From: Ruminococcus albus 7 = DSM 20455
GTDB taxonomy: Bacteria; Bacillota; Clostridia; Oscillospirales; Ruminococcaceae
Length of the DNA stretch: 32,000 nucleotides
Reading direction: 5' to 3'
NCBI RefSeq assembly: GCF_000179635.2
Contig: NC_014833.1
Coordinates: 3,240,001-3,272,000 of the forward strand
Part shown: piece by piece, positions 3,760 through 18,761 of the stretch
Layout of the letters: every line of letters starts with the position of its first letter
How positions within the stretch are numbered: position 1 is the stretch's first letter
Translations under genes and position numbers: made by a program
Notes under the pieces: generated by a model
What the model saw: only the letters and a program-made list of their open reading frames with translations
The model's database searches: none
What the model was told of the DNA's origin: nothing

Positions 3760-3872
3760 GTATTCACAGCCCTGACAAGAATAAAATATATGCATCCGTC
3801 GATATGCCCGCGCCGAATCGCCCCGTCGGTTAAATGCATATCATACAGATGCGTGATCGCAGGAGGGAGAAA

Positions 3873-4379
3873 ATGAACAGAAATACCAACAAAAAGGATG
3901 TCCTTGATTCACTGGACATATACACCTATATTGCCGAGCTTATAAACATACCCCTTGGTGATGCTACCAGGATGAACGGTCATACCCATAATGACAGTAT
4001 AGCAAGCACACGCTCCAAAGAGTTCTCGCTTTACCGTTCACTGTGCAGGAATGAAGCCTGTGTAAGGCAGCATCTTATGGATCTGCTGGTGCGCACCGCC
4101 AGGGCAGAAAAGAAAAACGCTCCGTATCTGCCCCTTTTGCGTGCCGAGATACGCGATGATACCGTAAGGCTCGCTGACCTCACCATGCGCCGCAAAAGGC
4201 TGGAGGACAGACGTGACAGCCTAAAAGGCATAGCGAAGCTGGCTGTACAGTACCGCTATTTTGAAGACCTTGACCGCCGCATACCCAAATGGAGCGAAAC
4301 TGCCGCAGTGCTTGGTATAGCCCTGAGCGGTGAAGAGCTCCGCAAATACGTATGCAGTCAGTTCCGCGATATGAAATGA
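3873..4379 (+). CDS. Hypothetical Arg-rich protein (169 aa) with a possible C-terminal HTH; putative SOS-regulated
   Basis: The ATG at 3873 is preceded by AGGAGGGAG (3861-3869). The track start at 3834 has no RBS. The C-terminal segment YRYFEDLDRRIPKWSETAAVLGIALSGEELRKYV resembles region-4-like HTHs of small phage-type activators (ArpU/DUF1492-like). That resemblance is not verified. Confidence 0.6.
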   Translation: MNRNTNKKDVLDSLDIYTYIAELINIPLGDATRMNGHTHNDSIASTRSKEFSLYRSLCRNEACVRQHLMDLLVRTARAEKKNAPYLPLLRAEIRDDTVRLADLTMRRKRLEDRRDSLKGIAKLAVQYRYFEDLDRRIPKWSETAAVLGIALSGEELRKYVCSQFRDMK

Positions 4380-14142: not shown

Positions 14143-14832
14143 ATGAAAAAGCTGTACGCTCTGTTAACAGCAGCATTGATGACATTTACACTTGCCATCC
14201 CTGCCGCTGCCGTAAAGCATTATGACCCTGCTGTCGGTCACATAACAACAGACGGCGCCCCTGAGGGAACTGTATATACGGATATCCTTGTGAAGCTGCC
14301 GACTGACGATGATAACTACACCGATTTCACACAGCCCCCGGAAGTATGCGCAGAAGGCGCCGAAAGCGGTCATCCCATTGATATCAGCGCAGAAAGTGAA
14401 ATAGCCAGATACAGTGAAAACGGCTATGTCAGCCTTTCGCTGCACCACAAAAAAGCAGGCACCCTCTGCATTTACCCAGATGAAGAGGTACTGAAGATGT
14501 CATCCTCGTCCTCGGCATCCTGCGATCTTATAGATCTGAGCATAGCCTACGGCGCTTTCAAGGCAGCCTATGTTGACGGCAGCGGTAACATCCTGGGTGT
14601 TACATCACCGTCGGATACCGAATATTCCCGTGACACCCCATACGGCTTCCATACAGACGGCAGCAGTCTAACATTTCAGCGGCATGGCGCACATCCCCGT
14701 ACTATCTCGCTGATAGTTGCAGGCACAACTTTAGTGCTGATATCCCTGCCGCTAATAACAGGCTACGTTTTATCCAAGCGCAAAAAGCGCATCAAACCCG
14801 CTGCCAACGCATCCGAAGGCACCAAGAAATAA
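14143..14832 (+). CDS. Hypothetical exported protein with a C-terminal membrane anchor
   Basis: Signal peptide MKKLYALLTAALMTFTLAIPAAA. C-terminal TM segment ISLIVAGTTLVLISLPLITGYVL followed by the basic tail SKRKKRIK. There is no LPXTG motif. Confidence 0.6.
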   Translation: MKKLYALLTAALMTFTLAIPAAAVKHYDPAVGHITTDGAPEGTVYTDILVKLPTDDDNYTDFTQPPEVCAEGAESGHPIDISAESEIARYSENGYVSLSLHHKKAGTLCIYPDEEVLKMSSSSSASCDLIDLSIAYGAFKAAYVDGSGNILGVTSPSDTEYSRDTPYGFHTDGSSLTFQRHGAHPRTISLIVAGTTLVLISLPLITGYVLSKRKKRIKPAANASEGTKK

Positions 14833-14848
14833 ACCGTACCACAAAACA

Positions 14849-14876
14849 GAGCGTATGCATTCGTTTGCATACGCTC
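14849..14876. terminator. Hairpin terminator between convergent genes
   Basis: An 11 bp perfect stem GAGCGTATGCA / TGCATACGCTC with a 6 nt loop, followed on the plus strand by GTAATTTTTT. Confidence 0.65.
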
Positions 14877-14909: not shown

Positions 14910-15866
14910 TCAATAGAATGTCGCAACTTCCTGTGCAGGTGCCTCGGCAGGTGTAAGTTCCTCTACCACCAGTACAGGGCCCTTGCCCTTGTACAGCTTA
15001 TGCTTCTGCATCTTGACGGTGAAAGTCGCATTGAACCACTTGGGCCTGGTAAGGTCTATCTCCTTATCGTAAAGGGTCGCAAGCCAGCAGAATGTTATAT
15101 CCTCCACACAGCAGGTCATTATCTTCCTGCCCAGTGCGATAGTACCCTTTGGGAACTTCGGATTCATCGCCGCCATAGCTTTCAGCTTTATACGCTTGCC
15201 GTCATACTTTTCGGGCTCCTCGTTGATATCCCTGTACCACAGTGCGTAGTCCCTGTCCTCAACAACTATGGTATCAGCGTTTATATCAAAGGGCAGAGGA
15301 TCTTCGATATCATCGTACTCCGATGTACCGTCGGTACACTCATAAGCGATATCGCAGCGCCTGCTTACACCTCTTACTATCTTGTGGAACTCCATTTTGT
15401 CCATAGCCGCCTTGTCAAAGCGGTTGAACACGGTAAGCTCGCAGTTGGAAAGCTTATCCACCACCAGTGATCTCATGTTCTGATTGTAGTTCATGAACGT
15501 AGTAGCATCCACGAAATTCATTATCTGGTAGATCGCCCAGTTATCGGGCAGGGCATTCAGCAGATCGTTCATCGTCCACATACCGTTGTACTCTATCATT
15601 ACTCTCTGACCGTGTACCTCGGTATACAGCTTCTGCAGATTGATAGGGTTCAGTTCGTCCTTATCCTCTATAACACGGGGATAGATATGGCTCTTATCGA
15701 AGTCCTTGGTGTCGTACTCCTCCATGCCCTCCTCGCATATAAGCAGAAGTGTCCTGTCGCCGTTGTTGAAACGCCTGTCCTCAAGGGTCTGCTTTATAAA
15801 GGAGGTCTTGCCGCCCTCCAGGAATCCCGTGAACAGGTACACGGGGATAAAATTATCTTCATTCAT
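14910..15866 (-). CDS. Divergent COG0523/G3E-family P-loop GTPase paralog lacking the CxCC metal motif
   Basis: N-terminal P-loop YLFTGFLEGGKTSF. CEEGMEEYD stands in place of the ENEFG motif. There is a Walker-B-like MIEYNG and an NRFD (NKxD-like) motif. No CxCC is present after the P-loop. This is the last gene of the three-gene minus-strand operon. Confidence 0.7.
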   Translation of the reverse strand: MNEDNFIPVYLFTGFLEGGKTSFIKQTLEDRRFNNGDRTLLLICEEGMEEYDTKDFDKSHIYPRVIEDKDELNPINLQKLYTEVHGQRVMIEYNGMWTMNDLLNALPDNWAIYQIMNFVDATTFMNYNQNMRSLVVDKLSNCELTVFNRFDKAAMDKMEFHKIVRGVSRRCDIAYECTDGTSEYDDIEDPLPFDINADTIVVEDRDYALWYRDINEEPEKYDGKRIKLKAMAAMNPKFPKGTIALGRKIMTCCVEDITFCWLATLYDKEIDLTRPKWFNATFTVKMQKHKLYKGKGPVLVVEELTPAEAPAQEVATFY

Positions 15867-15934
15867 TTTCAGTTTACTCTCCCGAATATAATCTAGTACG
15901 GGCTATATCCGCCCGAAGTATCTGTTGCATACCG

Positions 15935-17203
15935 TCAGAACGGCACCATTCCGTCAGGGTCATAGGATTCAAACTGGTCCTTTTCCGCAACAGGCACGAA
16001 CTTGCCCATGCCGCCGTCAGGCACAAATGTCATGCAGCAGTAATACTCATGCTCGCACTCATAGTCAGGCAGCACCAGCTTTTCAGACGAACCGCGTGCG
16101 ATATCGTACTGGTCAAGCAGCACCGAGCCGCTCTCCTTTTGGAGTATGCACTGCAGACCGCCGATCTCCAGACCGCCCTTCACCCTGCAAAGGGTACCGC
16201 TTGCATCAAAGTAGTCGAACTCCACCGTTTCACCGCGGCTGAGTGCGCCTATCTCCTCAGGTGTGAATATGTGTCCGCACCATACGCCGGAAAATCTCAC
16301 AGGGCATCTCAGCGCCTGCATCATGTATTTATCCAGGTCGCGTTCAAGCACTTCGCTGCTGAAGGTATCATAGAGAAAATCCATATCGAACAGCTGCTCA
16401 GCCACCTTTTTAAGATCCATATCCTTAGGCATGGAGAAGCTGCTCAGTGTCACCGTAAGATCTCCCGAAGCAAGACTTCTCTCGTACAGGAACCTGTACT
16501 CCCCAAGGCTGTTTTTCAGCGGTATATAGCTGCCGTCATTGTAGTGTATAACACAGCCGCCGTATTTTGACGAAGCCTTTTTAAGCTCATAACCGTAGTA
16601 AGCCGCAGGCTGTCCGCTCTCGGAGAACTCCTTGCCTACCACCTCGATTATGCCCCCGCCCAGCAGACGGTTCAGCGCTGCCGCATCGGGGAGCTCCCTG
16701 CAGAGGAAGCTCATCTCAACGAGCTCGCCCTCGTTGTATATATACAGGGTCTTCTTGTCGAACTCGGTTATCTTCGGCACGTACTTCCCCGGAAATACAT
16801 CGGGCACGAATTCGTATTCGGCAGTATTGTACAGCTTGTAGCTTGAATTGAAAGACACGTTGAAGGGGTCTATCTCCTTCTGTATCTTTTTAAGGCTTCC
16901 CGTCACGGTATATATCTTGTCGCCCTCGACCGAATCGAAGGTGATGCTTCCGCCGTCACACAGCACGGATATCTCATCTTCGGTGAATATATGTCCGTGC
17001 CACACTCCGCTGAACTGTGCGTCCTCGCCGTCCATGCTGAACTTTACCGTGACCCTTTCAAAGATCCTGCCGTTCAGCTCGCTGCTGTACTCGAATCTCT
17101 CTCCGCCGTTATCAAAAGGCGCATACTTCGTGCTGCCGTCCTCTCCCTGAAAGCTTCTGGGATAAAACTGATCCTTCCTGATCTCGTGATTTGACTTTTC
17201 CAT
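15935..17203 (-). CDS. Hypothetical protein (422 aa) with an internally duplicated module
   Basis: AAGGAGG RBS. Two copies of a module: VKFSMDGEDAQFSGVWHGHIFTEDEISVLCDGGSITFD (about aa 53-90) and VRFSGVWCGHIFTPEEIGALSRGETVEFD (about aa 302-330). No signal peptide or TM segment. Confidence 0.7.
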   Translation of the reverse strand: MEKSNHEIRKDQFYPRSFQGEDGSTKYAPFDNGGERFEYSSELNGRIFERVTVKFSMDGEDAQFSGVWHGHIFTEDEISVLCDGGSITFDSVEGDKIYTVTGSLKKIQKEIDPFNVSFNSSYKLYNTAEYEFVPDVFPGKYVPKITEFDKKTLYIYNEGELVEMSFLCRELPDAAALNRLLGGGIIEVVGKEFSESGQPAAYYGYELKKASSKYGGCVIHYNDGSYIPLKNSLGEYRFLYERSLASGDLTVTLSSFSMPKDMDLKKVAEQLFDMDFLYDTFSSEVLERDLDKYMMQALRCPVRFSGVWCGHIFTPEEIGALSRGETVEFDYFDASGTLCRVKGGLEIGGLQCILQKESGSVLLDQYDIARGSSEKLVLPDYECEHEYYCCMTFVPDGGMGKFVPVAEKDQFESYDPDGMVPF

Positions 17204-17258
17204 GCTGTAACCTCCTTTTCGGTATATGATTTTTTCAGCCGTATTTTATAATATTGTC

Positions 17259-18455
17259 TTACTGCACACCGAACAGCTCTGCAACAGCTTCTTCCTTGAG
17301 CTCTGCACCAATAACACAAAGTCTGCCTATGGTGCTTGCCGAGCCTGTTCTTACATCGGGCACACCGGGAACATAGTCATAGTGTATCCATGTGCCGTCA
17401 GTACCCTCTACGATGCCCTTTGCACGCAGAACATAGCCGTACTTCTTCTCATCCTCAAGTGCCTCCAGCGCTGCACGTATCTCATCGGCTGTGAACTTCT
17501 TTGCAGTTTCTCTGCCCCAGCTGGTGAATACTTCATCTGCATGGTGGTGGTGATGATCGTGGTCGTGGCAGCCGCAGGTGCAGTGCTCGTCATGTTCGTG
17601 GTGATGATGCTCGTGCTCATCGTGATCGTGGTGATGATGCTCATGCTCGTCGTGATCGTGGTGGTGATGCTCATGGTCATGGTCGTGATCATGGCAGCCG
17701 CAGGTGCAGTCCTCGCCGTGTTCGTGATGGTGGTGCTCATGCTCATCTTCGTCATGGTCATGGTGGTGATGATGATGCTCATGCTCATCTTCGTCGTGGT
17801 CATGGTGATGATGATGCTCATGCTCCTCTTCAAGCAGAGCCTTCAGCTCGTCATCAAGAGTATTCTTCTGTGTCATGGCATCAGTGAGCTGCTTGCCTGT
17901 CAGCTTGTCCCACTCGGTAGTAACTATGGGAGCCTTGTCGTTCAGGGCGCGGAGCCTTGCTACCACATCGTCCAGTCTTTCCTGAGGAACACCTGTGGTA
18001 TGGCTGAGGATAAGGCAGCTTGCATAGGTTATCTGGTTGTTGAAGAACTCACCGAAATTCTTCTGATACATCTTGCACTTAGCAGCATCAACAACAGTTG
18101 TGAAACCGTCCAGTACAACATCGTGTGCGTGGATATCCTGCACTGCCTTGATAACATCGCTGAGCTTGCCCACGCCCGATGGCTCTATGAGTATACGGTC
18201 GGGCTTGTAGGTATCAAGCACCTGGACAAGTGCCTTGCCGAAATCGCCCACCAGTGAGCAGCATATACAACCTGAATTCATCTCAGTTATCTCAACGCCT
18301 GCATCCTGCAGGAATCCGCCGTCAATACCTATCTGACCGAATTCATTCTCTATAAGTACGAGTTTTTTGCCGTTGTAGCCCTCAGCGATGAGTTTCTTTA
18401 TCAGCGTGGTCTTGCCTGCGCCCAGGAAGCCGCTGAAAATGGTGATCTTGGTCAT
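17259..18455 (-). CDS. COG0523 (CobW/ZigA/YjiA-like) metallochaperone GTPase with a 98-aa His-rich insertion
   Basis: P-loop FSGFLGAGKTTL, then IENEFG, the CxCC motif GCICCS and Walker B ILIEPSG. Residues 209-306 are almost entirely H/D/E and include two CTCGCHDHDH motifs. A CobW_C-like tail follows (VLRAKGIV...RLCVIG). Confidence 0.9.
   Translation of the reverse strand: MTKITIFSGFLGAGKTTLIKKLIAEGYNGKKLVLIENEFGQIGIDGGFLQDAGVEITEMNSGCICCSLVGDFGKALVQVLDTYKPDRILIEPSGVGKLSDVIKAVQDIHAHDVVLDGFTTVVDAAKCKMYQKNFGEFFNNQITYASCLILSHTTGVPQERLDDVVARLRALNDKAPIVTTEWDKLTGKQLTDAMTQKNTLDDELKALLEEEHEHHHHHDHDEDEHEHHHHHHDHDEDEHEHHHHEHGEDCTCGCHDHDHDHEHHHHDHDEHEHHHHDHDEHEHHHHEHDEHCTCGCHDHDHHHHHADEVFTSWGRETAKKFTADEIRAALEALEDEKKYGYVLRAKGIVEGTDGTWIHYDYVPGVPDVRTGSASTIGRLCVIGAELKEEAVAELFGVQ
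17538..17831 (-). repeat. Low-complexity coding repeat (His/Asp/Glu tract) with internal duplications
   Basis: GGCAGCCGCAGGTGCAGT occurs at 17566-17583 and again at 17693-17710, a period of 127 bp. Near-identical CTCATGCTCATCTTCGTC(A/G)TGGTCATGGTG units are tandem around 17736-17815. Confidence 0.85.
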
Positions 18456-18508
18456 TATAATAACACTTCTTTCTATTGATTATGAGATCATACACTTTCT
18501 CATTTTTT

Positions 18509-18537
18509 ATTATAGCACATTTCCCCGAAAAAATCAA
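18509..18537 (-). promoter_or_regulatory. Candidate sigma-A promoter (extended -10) for the COG0523 operon
   Basis: Minus strand: TTGATT (18537-18532), a 17 nt spacer, TGcTATAAT with TATAAT at 18514-18509. Confidence 0.5.
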
Positions 18538-18761
18538 CCACCTGCACCCCCCGAAACTCTTTGATACAGCTGTCATCCCTTGTGCAAAATGCTGTAAGCC
18601 GAGCCCCTATTTTTGTGTAAAAAAAGCCGGGAAAAGCCTTTACTTTTCCTGCGGGATATGATAAAATTAATTTAATTGCTTTTGTACTTTACAGCTTTTA
18701 TACTTTCACAGGGCAAAGTGAAGTACTCTGTGACAAAACGATTCGGAAAGGATAGTAAATA

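Follow-up and report, generated by a model that had tools for sequence, protein, structure and literature searches.

Organization of the locus

The window considered here is a stretch of 32,000 nucleotides of the genome of Ruminococcus albus 7 = DSM 20455 (contig NC_014833.1, positions 3,240,001 to 3,272,000 of the forward strand), and this analysis concerns three consecutive genes on its minus strand, hereafter called genes 1, 2 and 3 in their order of transcription (Table 1). Gene 1 codes for a COG0523-family guanosine triphosphatase (GTPase) of the G3E type, and gene 3 for a second nucleoside triphosphatase (NTPase) that combines a related nucleotide-binding domain with a C-terminal domain of another family. 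Between them lies gene 2, which codes for an acidic protein restricted to one clade. Comparison with other genomes shows that the conserved unit is a two-gene operon made of genes 1 and 3.

The reading frames are separated by 55 nucleotides (genes 1 and 2) and 68 nucleotides (genes 2 and 3), and scanning of both gaps revealed no predicted promoter-like or terminator-like site in either. In other loci, gene 1 homologs are preceded at the matching position by a promoter-like site of the same type, TTGCAA-17-TGnTATAAT. At the other end of the operon, the hairpin that the trio shares with a convergent gene (14143-14832) has a weak T tail on the operon strand, TGTTTTGTGG. The ribosome-binding site of gene 2 is strong (AAGGAGG), and that of gene 3 reads GGGAG. 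The extents of the three genes, the two gaps, the promoter-like site and the hairpin had already been recognized in an initial sequence-only reading of this DNA, and all of them were found again in the sequence.

Table 1. Features of the three-gene operon and of related elements. Positions refer to the window unless a locus is named.
Feature	Position	Strand	Evidence
Gene 1, COG0523-family G3E GTPase with CobW_C, 398 residues	17259..18455	-	Pfam, NCBIfam, structure-database profile match, motifs
His/Asp/Glu-rich linker of gene 1, residues 209-307	17535..17831	-	Residue composition; imperfect tandem DNA repeats
Gene 2, clade-specific soluble acidic protein, 422 residues	15935..17203	-	Open reading frame, own ribosome-binding site, dN/dS, AlphaFold2 model
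Gene 2 module 1, residues ~52-108, Toprim_Crpt/DUF3945-like repeat	16880..17050	-	Alignment, profile search
Gene 2 module 2, residues ~296-352, Toprim_Crpt/DUF3945-like repeat	16148..16318	-	Alignment, profile search
Gene 3, 318 residues	14910-15866	-	Open reading frame
Gene 3 N-terminal G3E-type NTPase domain without CxCC loop	15297..15866	-	Pfam, alignment, AlphaFold2 fold matches, hhalign
Gene 3 C-terminal DUF1980_C domain	14931..15284	-	PF21537, TIGR03943, alignment, AlphaFold2 model
Promoter, sigma-70-like, upstream of gene 1	18509..18537	-	TTGATT-17-TGcTATAAT, 10/12 positions, extended -10 TG
Hairpin, 11-bp stem, bidirectional terminator	14849..14876	.	Common to the trio and the convergent gene
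172-residue open reading frame, other loci	L001 10728-11246; L003 6232-6750; L008 2607-3125; L009 6492-7010
Homolog of the 172-residue open reading frame in the window	3834-4379	+	55% identity

Gene 1 codes for a COG0523 GTPase with an extreme histidine-rich linker

The product of gene 1 matches the Pfam profile cobW with an E value of 4.8e-41 (profile positions 2-179 of 180) and CobW_C with 22.9 bits (cut-off 22), and its nearest solved structure is that of E. coli YjiA (1.2e-23). It harbors a P-loop of the COG0523 type, GFLGAGKT, together with ENEFG and IEPSG (LIEPSG, Walker B/G3). The sequence NSGCICCS at residues 60-67 is invariant in 10 homologs; a motif of the form N(G/S)C-phi-CC, located between G2 and G3, is the defining metal site of COG0523 (PMC11672702). 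The C-terminal domain contains RAKG at residues 344-347, an instance of RxKG, which a 2026 preprint describes as an arginine finger for ‘self-gapping’ and as the sole motif that is invariant in the C-terminal domains of COG0523 proteins (PMC13001444). The assignment of gene 1 to COG0523, which had been based on GCICCS, ENEFG, IEPSG and a His-rich insertion, is thus upheld.

The comparison with known COG0523 metallochaperones included YjiA and YeiR of E. coli, ZigA and MigC of A. baumannii, ZagA/YciC of B. subtilis, CobW, Nha3 and the eukaryotic ZNG1. Gene 1 shares with them the G3E P-loop, the ENEFG switch segment, NSGCICC, the IEPSG Walker B motif, CobW_C with RxKG and a His-rich stretch, but it differs in several respects. 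Its scores are below the NCBIfam equivalog cut-offs (98 versus 361 bits for the YjiA type, 92 versus 332 for CobW, and 73 versus 600 for ZigA). Its G4 motif is SHTT (residues 152-155, window 17991-18002) rather than NKxD; it aligns with TKTD of YjiA, and in the gene 1 homologs G4 reads S[HR]T with no conserved Asp. Unlike the known proteins, gene 1 is always found beside a second NTPase gene, and neither a Zur box nor a nearby client was found for it.

A further difference is the linker, in which 50 of the 99 residues are His and 37 are acidic (Asp or Glu); its 6 Cys belong to two CTCGC motifs. Since His stretches occur in about 40% of COG0523 proteins with at most 29 His (Haas et al., PMC2770081), the linker of gene 1 is an extreme case of a known feature of the family. 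Its homologs (L012-L097) have 17 to 65 His each and linkers of 13 to 180 residues, and C[TDS]CGC is present in the linker of 43 of 78 of them, in one to five copies. The linker-coding DNA consists of imperfect tandem repeats with periods of 30, 36 and 42, and because of this repeat structure the linker probably changes length by slippage.

Gene 3 joins a G domain without CxCC to a DUF1980_C domain

The N-terminal 170 residues of the gene 3 product pass the Pfam cobW threshold weakly (27.6 bits, cut-off 20.7). Its relationship to the G domain of the gene 1 family is supported by hhalign (95.3% probability, E 2.2e-8, 147 columns), and the alignment leaves a seven-residue gap in gene 3 exactly at GCICCSL, the CxCC loop of gene 1. 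No CxCC motif is present in any of 32 aligned gene 3 homologs. The nucleotide-binding motifs of gene 3 are the P-loop GFLEGGKT, IEYNGM and FNRFD; GFLExGKT, C44-EEG-x-EEY, EYNGMW and FNR are invariant in the 32 homologs, and G4 is degenerate in the family (FNR[FVM][DES]). An ungapped comparison had paired Cys44 with the YjiA ligand Glu37, a correspondence that was abandoned, as hhalign pairs Cys44 with the neighboring Asn. Because the G4 motifs of both partners are degenerate, their nucleotide specificity may not be strictly for GTP.

The C-terminal half of the protein is not matched by CobW_C in Pfam. It is instead a DUF1980_C domain (PF21537, 60.5 bits, cut-off 25.9, E 1.8e-16, residues 195-312), in which C252, C253, D256 and C260 are invariant (CC-x2-D-x3-C). 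The AlphaFold2 model of gene 3, with a pLDDT (predicted local distance difference test) score of 86, has an N-terminal domain of the G3E/SIMIBI type, with HypB, UreG, MeaB and the GTPases of the signal recognition particle (SRP) as best matches, followed by one helix and a five-stranded β-barrel with weak matches to oligonucleotide/oligosaccharide-binding folds. CxCC is the feature by which COG0523 is distinguished in the field (PMC11672702), and gene 3 is therefore not counted as a member of the family; judged by its sequence, it is COG0523-like for its G domain only. Of the proposal that gene 3 is a COG0523 paralog devoid of CxCC, the relationship of the G domains and the missing motif have stood, but the C-terminal CC pair belongs to DUF1980_C and not to CobW_C.

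Within the same domain the motif Y[RK]GKGP is nearly invariant among the homologs, with R in 18/32 and K in 14/32, and it reads LYKGKG in the window (residues 291-296, window 14979-14996). This turn is similar to RxKG, the arginine-finger motif in the C-terminal domains of COG0523 proteins.

Proteins of the TIGR03943/DUF1980 family are of the YcgQ type and represent the small subunit of a putative two-component permease, with the permease family ArsP_1 (DUF318) as their usual partner. Gene 3 matches positions 93-219 of 221 of TIGR03943 (E 1.4e-16) with 60.6 bits, below the cut-off of 88.8, and some sources name its homologs ‘TIGR03943 family putative permease subunit’. Its C-terminal 120 residues are a clear DUF1980_C domain, but where the profile has its N-terminal part, which we take to be the membrane-anchored half, gene 3 has the NTPase domain, and it possesses neither a transmembrane helix nor an adjacent permease gene. 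None of the three proteins of the trio has a transmembrane segment, and the maximal 19-residue hydropathy of gene 3 is 1.05, which rules out that it is a membrane permease subunit. To call this soluble protein a ‘putative permease subunit’, as RefSeq does, goes too far.

The pair formed by genes 1 and 3 is conserved across genomes

Relatives of gene 3 form at least 8000 clusters at 90% identity and are found in hundreds of species genomes. Genomic context was analyzed for the best 80 of at least 597 confirmed stretches in species-representative genomes, 74 of which have upstream DNA. In each of these 74 the gene 3 homolog is immediately preceded by a gene 1 homolog, at gaps typically of about -50 to +20 nucleotides and with 59-94% identity to the window in the G domain. 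Among the labels of the best 80 loci are Ruminococcus, Oscillospiraceae, Acutalibacteraceae and Lachnospiraceae metagenome-assembled genomes. The same pair occurs in further loci, including metagenome loci (L012-L016, L097, L105-L108), and on a replicon of Vescimonas fastidiosa, where it is annotated as ‘CobW family GTP-binding protein’ and ‘GTP-binding protein’. Clustering of all flanking reading frames revealed no third neighbor family recurring in more than 7 of about 90 loci. A link between the two GTPases had been suspected from the window; the comparison establishes it at the level of gene order and strongly supports the idea that the two proteins work together.

Four loci in the collection (L024, L031, L089, L090) have a pair of the Clostridia type, with a G domain 65-86% identical to that of gene 1, under the labels of Alistipes, Barnesiella or Flexilinea metagenome-assembled genomes; these are probably mis-binned contigs. 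In a single case (L107, 1-2344), an HMA-domain P-type ATPase, i.e., a heavy-metal pump, is encoded directly upstream of the pair on the same strand.

Gene 2 is a clade-specific insertion with topoisomerase-like repeats

Gene 2 codes for a soluble protein with an isoelectric point of 4.6 that has no match in Pfam, NCBIfam, PADLOC or PHROGs. When Pfam was searched directly, nothing was obtained at E <= 1 with the whole protein or at E <= 10 with its isolated modules. These two modules of about 55 residues can be aligned to one another, centered on F-x-G-x-W-x-x-H-I-F-T-x-[DE]-E-[IV]-x-x-L-x-x-G; the internal repeat was not reported by a BLAST comparison of the protein with itself and was found by module alignment. 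When 1.84 billion representative proteins were searched with a gene 2 profile, 126 matched, three of them near-full-length or fragment relatives and 123 matching the modules alone. Among the 120 that were scanned, Toprim_Crpt was present in 66, DUF3945 in 65 and the topoisomerase catalytic domain (Topoisom_bac) in 40, and many were type IA topoisomerases of 800-980 residues, matched in their C-terminal part (residues 600-880) with E values down to 1e-17.

Because the profile matches carry Toprim_Crpt and DUF3945, the modules are assigned, through these intermediate sequences, as divergent and distant members of the superfamily of topoisomerase C-terminal repeats. They share W-x-G-H-x-F-T-x-x-E-x-x-x-L-x-x-G with the Toprim_Crpt (PF13342) and DUF3945 (PF13101) repeats; W-x-x-H is general to the repeat family and not special to gene 2. 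Unlike the type IA topoisomerases, gene 2 has no catalytic domain, is chromosomal and lies within a metallochaperone operon, and its additional β-rich regions and conserved acidic C-terminal tail, in contrast with the repeats, have no detectable relatives. Type IA topoisomerases with repeats of this kind are presumably found mainly on conjugative elements. No functional study of PF13342 or PF13101 was found in the open literature searched. The description of gene 2 as an unrecognized protein with a duplicated module therefore remains valid as far as curated families and the mutual alignment of the modules are concerned, but distant relatives do exist.

Structure-based searches were less informative. 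A sequence-profile search of the PDB with gene 2 gave nothing below E 0.89, and Foldseek with its AlphaFold2 model (pLDDT 72.5) gave best E values of 0.44 in the PDB and 0.12 in BFVD, neither of them significant. The protein contains no conserved four-ligand set of Cys and His, its only invariant residues of these types being H71, C82 and H311. Its C-terminal tail, F-x-SYDPDG-x-VPF (residues 411-422, window 15938-15973), has an invariant core and is predicted to be disordered. An acidic tail that ends in a hydrophobic residue, Pro and Phe recalls the C-terminal tip of bacterial single-stranded DNA-binding proteins (DDDIPF), which docks on enzymes of DNA metabolism. The search of plasmid and phage collections with tblastn gave no gene 2 match, and one remote relative, P0131, lies on a 2.2-kb contig with an uninformative context.

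The distribution of gene 2 is narrow, with nine clusters at 90% identity among 5.8 billion. It is present in a single one of the 80 best gene 3 loci, that of R. albus 8 (L017), and in the loci recovered by means of gene 2 itself (L001-L011, L098-L103). All 18 gene 2 loci outside the window show the arrangement gene 1-gene 2-gene 3 as far as their contigs extend. Close relatives, with 76% and 69% identity to the window in gene 3, carry the pair but not gene 2. Conservation of the trio in related genomes, which had been set beforehand as a test of the three-gene system, is thus strict within the R. albus-like clade, but gene 2 is missing elsewhere.

Members of the trio clade share 91-95% identity with the window in the G domain of gene 1, 77-84% in gene 3, and only 33-62% in gene 2. 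The ratios of nonsynonymous to synonymous substitution rates (dN/dS) relative to the closest relatives are 0.02, 0.08 and 0.06 for genes 1, 2 and 3, respectively, and those of gene 2 range from 0.08 to 0.23. Gene 2 is thus a real gene, presumably co-transcribed with its neighbors; it is under purifying selection, but its evolution is several times faster than theirs. The gaps that flank it are longer than the ancestral junction between genes 1 and 3, and gene 2 is a later insertion into the pair operon in the R. albus-like clade.

Regulation and choice of metal

No match with up to three mismatches was found in the window for the Zur-box pattern TCGTAATNATTACGA, which is of the B. subtilis type and may not be the motif used in Oscillospirales. 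No palindrome is shared by eight orthologous upstream regions, and an inverted-repeat scan of the promoter region gave nothing convincing. Rfam detected no riboswitch or other family at the gathering score, the only hits being chance-level miRNA-like matches within the His-codon repeats. The view that the operon is preceded by neither a Zur box nor a riboswitch is consistent with both the pattern search and Rfam. With a strong sigma-70-like promoter and neither of these elements, expression of the pair operon looks constitutive, judging from the upstream sequence.

By family precedent, zinc is most likely the metal handled by the system, with nickel, cobalt and iron as further possibilities. 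An independent association exists in B. anthracis: the COG0523 gene yciC (BAS1633) is bound by Zur, and so is the region upstream of its neighbor BAS1632, an ArsP_1 permease operon (PMC6336718).

The upstream region contains additional elements. A purine-rich sequence, AGAAAGAAGTGT, is located at 18463-18475 on the minus strand, 15-19 nucleotides upstream of the gene 1 start, and its exact form GAAAGAAGTG is kept in 38 of 85 loci across species (L001-L020 and others). It resembles AGAAAGGAGGTG, an extended complement of the anti-Shine-Dalgarno sequence, with a weakened core, and could be a means of tuning translation. A possible operator is the 6-bp inverted repeat ATGAGA-N10-TCTCAT (18482-18503), which is placed downstream of the -10 hexamer and ahead of the ribosome-binding site of gene 1; it is not conserved in seven other upstream regions inspected. 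The divergent intergenic region contains, on the upstream side of the operon promoter, a hairpin that resembles a terminator and has a T run (GGAAAAGTAAAGGCTTTTCC and CGGCTTTTTT; 18630-18649, minus strand); no minus-strand gene terminates at this place.

A two-NTPase metallochaperone model and its alternatives

Taken together, the data lead us to favor, at slightly better than an even chance, a metallochaperone pair of two NTPases, probably for zinc, with gene 2 as a clade-specific accessory rather than a general client. The products of genes 1 and 3 are soluble G3E-type NTPases, and they most likely act jointly as a nucleotide-driven metallochaperone. Gene 1 would be the metal-loading partner, with its high-affinity CxCC site and its CobW_C domain equipped with the RxKG ‘arginine finger’, and its His- and Cys-rich linker might be a metal reservoir. 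Gene 3, which has a competent-looking P-loop and Walker B motif, has lost the CxCC loop and carries the DUF1980_C barrel where gene 1 has CobW_C. By analogy with the HypB and UreG dimers, or with SRP and its receptor, it would pair with gene 1, receive or present the metal on its DUF1980_C cysteines, and hand it off to a target encoded elsewhere. The product of gene 2 would probably be an accessory or adaptor protein that binds nucleic acid or protein in this clade. The structures of the genes, the identities of the domains, synteny, distribution and selection are established by the present data; heterodimer formation, metal transfer, the choice of metal and the role of gene 2 are the parts of this model that we infer.

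The analogy with HypB, UreG, MeaB and SRP with its receptor, which include the best fold matches of the N-terminal domain of gene 3, suggests that two related NTPases encoded together might form a composite nucleotide-gated dimer. There are differences, however. HypB, UreG and MeaB are homodimers with metal ligands in each subunit and SRP handles no metal, whereas in the present pair CxCC is found in one partner alone and the putative dimer would be heteromeric.

Several considerations weigh against the metallochaperone pair. Physical contact between the products of genes 1 and 3 and the binding of metal are putative, and so would be any metal-dependent regulation. Both G4 motifs depart from the canonical form, that of gene 1 being SHTT and that of gene 3 FNR[FVM][DES], and the absence of a B. 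subtilis-type Zur box weakens the assignment of zinc. COG0523 proteins are thought to be mostly monomers, and the C-terminal domain of YjiA appears to block dimerization of the HypB type (PMC11672702). Lastly, gene 2 is strictly syntenic in its clade, so that a functional link with the pair, including the role of a client limited to that clade, is possible.

A stronger form of the model would make the pair an obligate heterodimeric G3E NTPase machine, in which metal stored on the linker and CxCC site of gene 1 moves under nucleotide control to the CC-x2-D-x3-C motif of DUF1980_C; in the R. albus clade, the topoisomerase-type repeats of gene 2 would tether this machine to nucleic acid or an enzyme that acts on it. 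We consider this version unlikely.

A different arrangement is a three-protein system, in which gene 2 would be the metal-receiving client or the adaptor that joins both GTPases. Its invariable place between genes 1 and 3 in 18/18 outside loci, the lack of a predicted terminator or promoter in the gaps around it, the purifying selection that it undergoes, and its disordered and invariant C-terminal peptide F-x-SYDPD, which looks like a docking motif, all agree with such a role. However, the pair is found without gene 2 in all 73 other genome loci with upstream DNA and in further pair-only loci, including the close relatives mentioned above, and therefore the pair works without it. Gene 2 also lacks a conserved four-ligand set, and its divergence far exceeds that of its partners, a pattern that obligate core subunits seldom show. 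The proposal of the sequence-only reading that gene 2 serves the system in general as its client or adaptor is thus not sustained, given that nearly all pairs do without it, that it has no conserved metal ligands and that its kin are topoisomerase repeats; the three-protein system as such is doubtful.

The relationship of gene 3 to TIGR03943 raises the question of transport. Gene 3 might be a soluble, NTPase-driven transporter accessory that docks on a permease, with gene 1 giving or taking the metal and NTP hydrolysis coupled to uptake or export. The matches to TIGR03943 (positions 93-219 of 221) and PF21537, as well as the name of permease subunit given to some homologs, point in this direction, as do the proximity of a Zur-bound ArsP_1 permease operon to the COG0523 gene yciC in B. 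anthracis (PMC6336718) and the HMA P-type ATPase found upstream of the pair in one locus (L107). Nevertheless, among about 90 loci no permease gene recurs beside the pair, gene 3 is devoid of transmembrane segments, its TIGR03943 score is below the cut-off, and no functional study of canonical DUF1980 was found in the open literature searched, which makes a transporter accessory quite improbable.

It is very improbable that gene 2 is a passenger of mobile-element or conflict origin that exploits a strong and constitutively active operon and has no metal role: its relatives (type IA topoisomerase C-terminal repeats and small repeat-only proteins), its narrow and patchy distribution, its fast evolution, its own strong ribosome-binding site and flanking gaps longer than the ancestral junction could be explained in this manner, but no other mobile-element genes lie near gene 2 in the trio loci, it has no match in plasmid and phage collections, PADLOC or PHROGs, and its position is kept down to 33% identity with dN/dS values of 0.08-0.23.

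Genes flanking the operon

The genes that flank the trio in the window have no relation to metals. In four related loci an Arg-rich open reading frame of 172 residues, with no Pfam family on record, is found just downstream of the trio (Table 1). It was considered as a member of the system and rejected, as its homolog in the window is 10 kb off and the local downstream gene is unrelated; the distance reflects a local rearrangement.

Implications for COG0523 and DUF1980 proteins

Both GTPases are already annotated in databases, one of them misleadingly, and the novelty lies in a COG0523 system whose obligate second NTPase has a new architecture, and in a lineage-specific insertion. No functional study of the pair of genes 1 and 3 or of DUF1980, TIGR03943 or YcgQ was found in the open literature searched. 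A 2024 review lists only CobW and Nha3 as having known clients (PMC11672702). Since the partners and clients of bacterial COG0523 proteins are largely unknown, the NTPase that is invariably co-encoded in gut and rumen Clostridia, hundreds of them and abundant ones, represents a concrete candidate partner.

The pair also opens a first way to approach the function of the DUF1980 domain, and its analysis corrects the misleading annotation ‘putative permease subunit’ on the soluble gene 3 protein. Gene 2 provides an example of a topoisomerase-tail repeat outside the context of a DNA enzyme and may inform what such repeats bind. If the two proteins do form a heterodimeric machine, the role of DUF1980 in permease systems of the YcgQ type would be metal hand-off, and the pair would represent a previously undescribed class of metallochaperone that is widespread in gut Clostridia.

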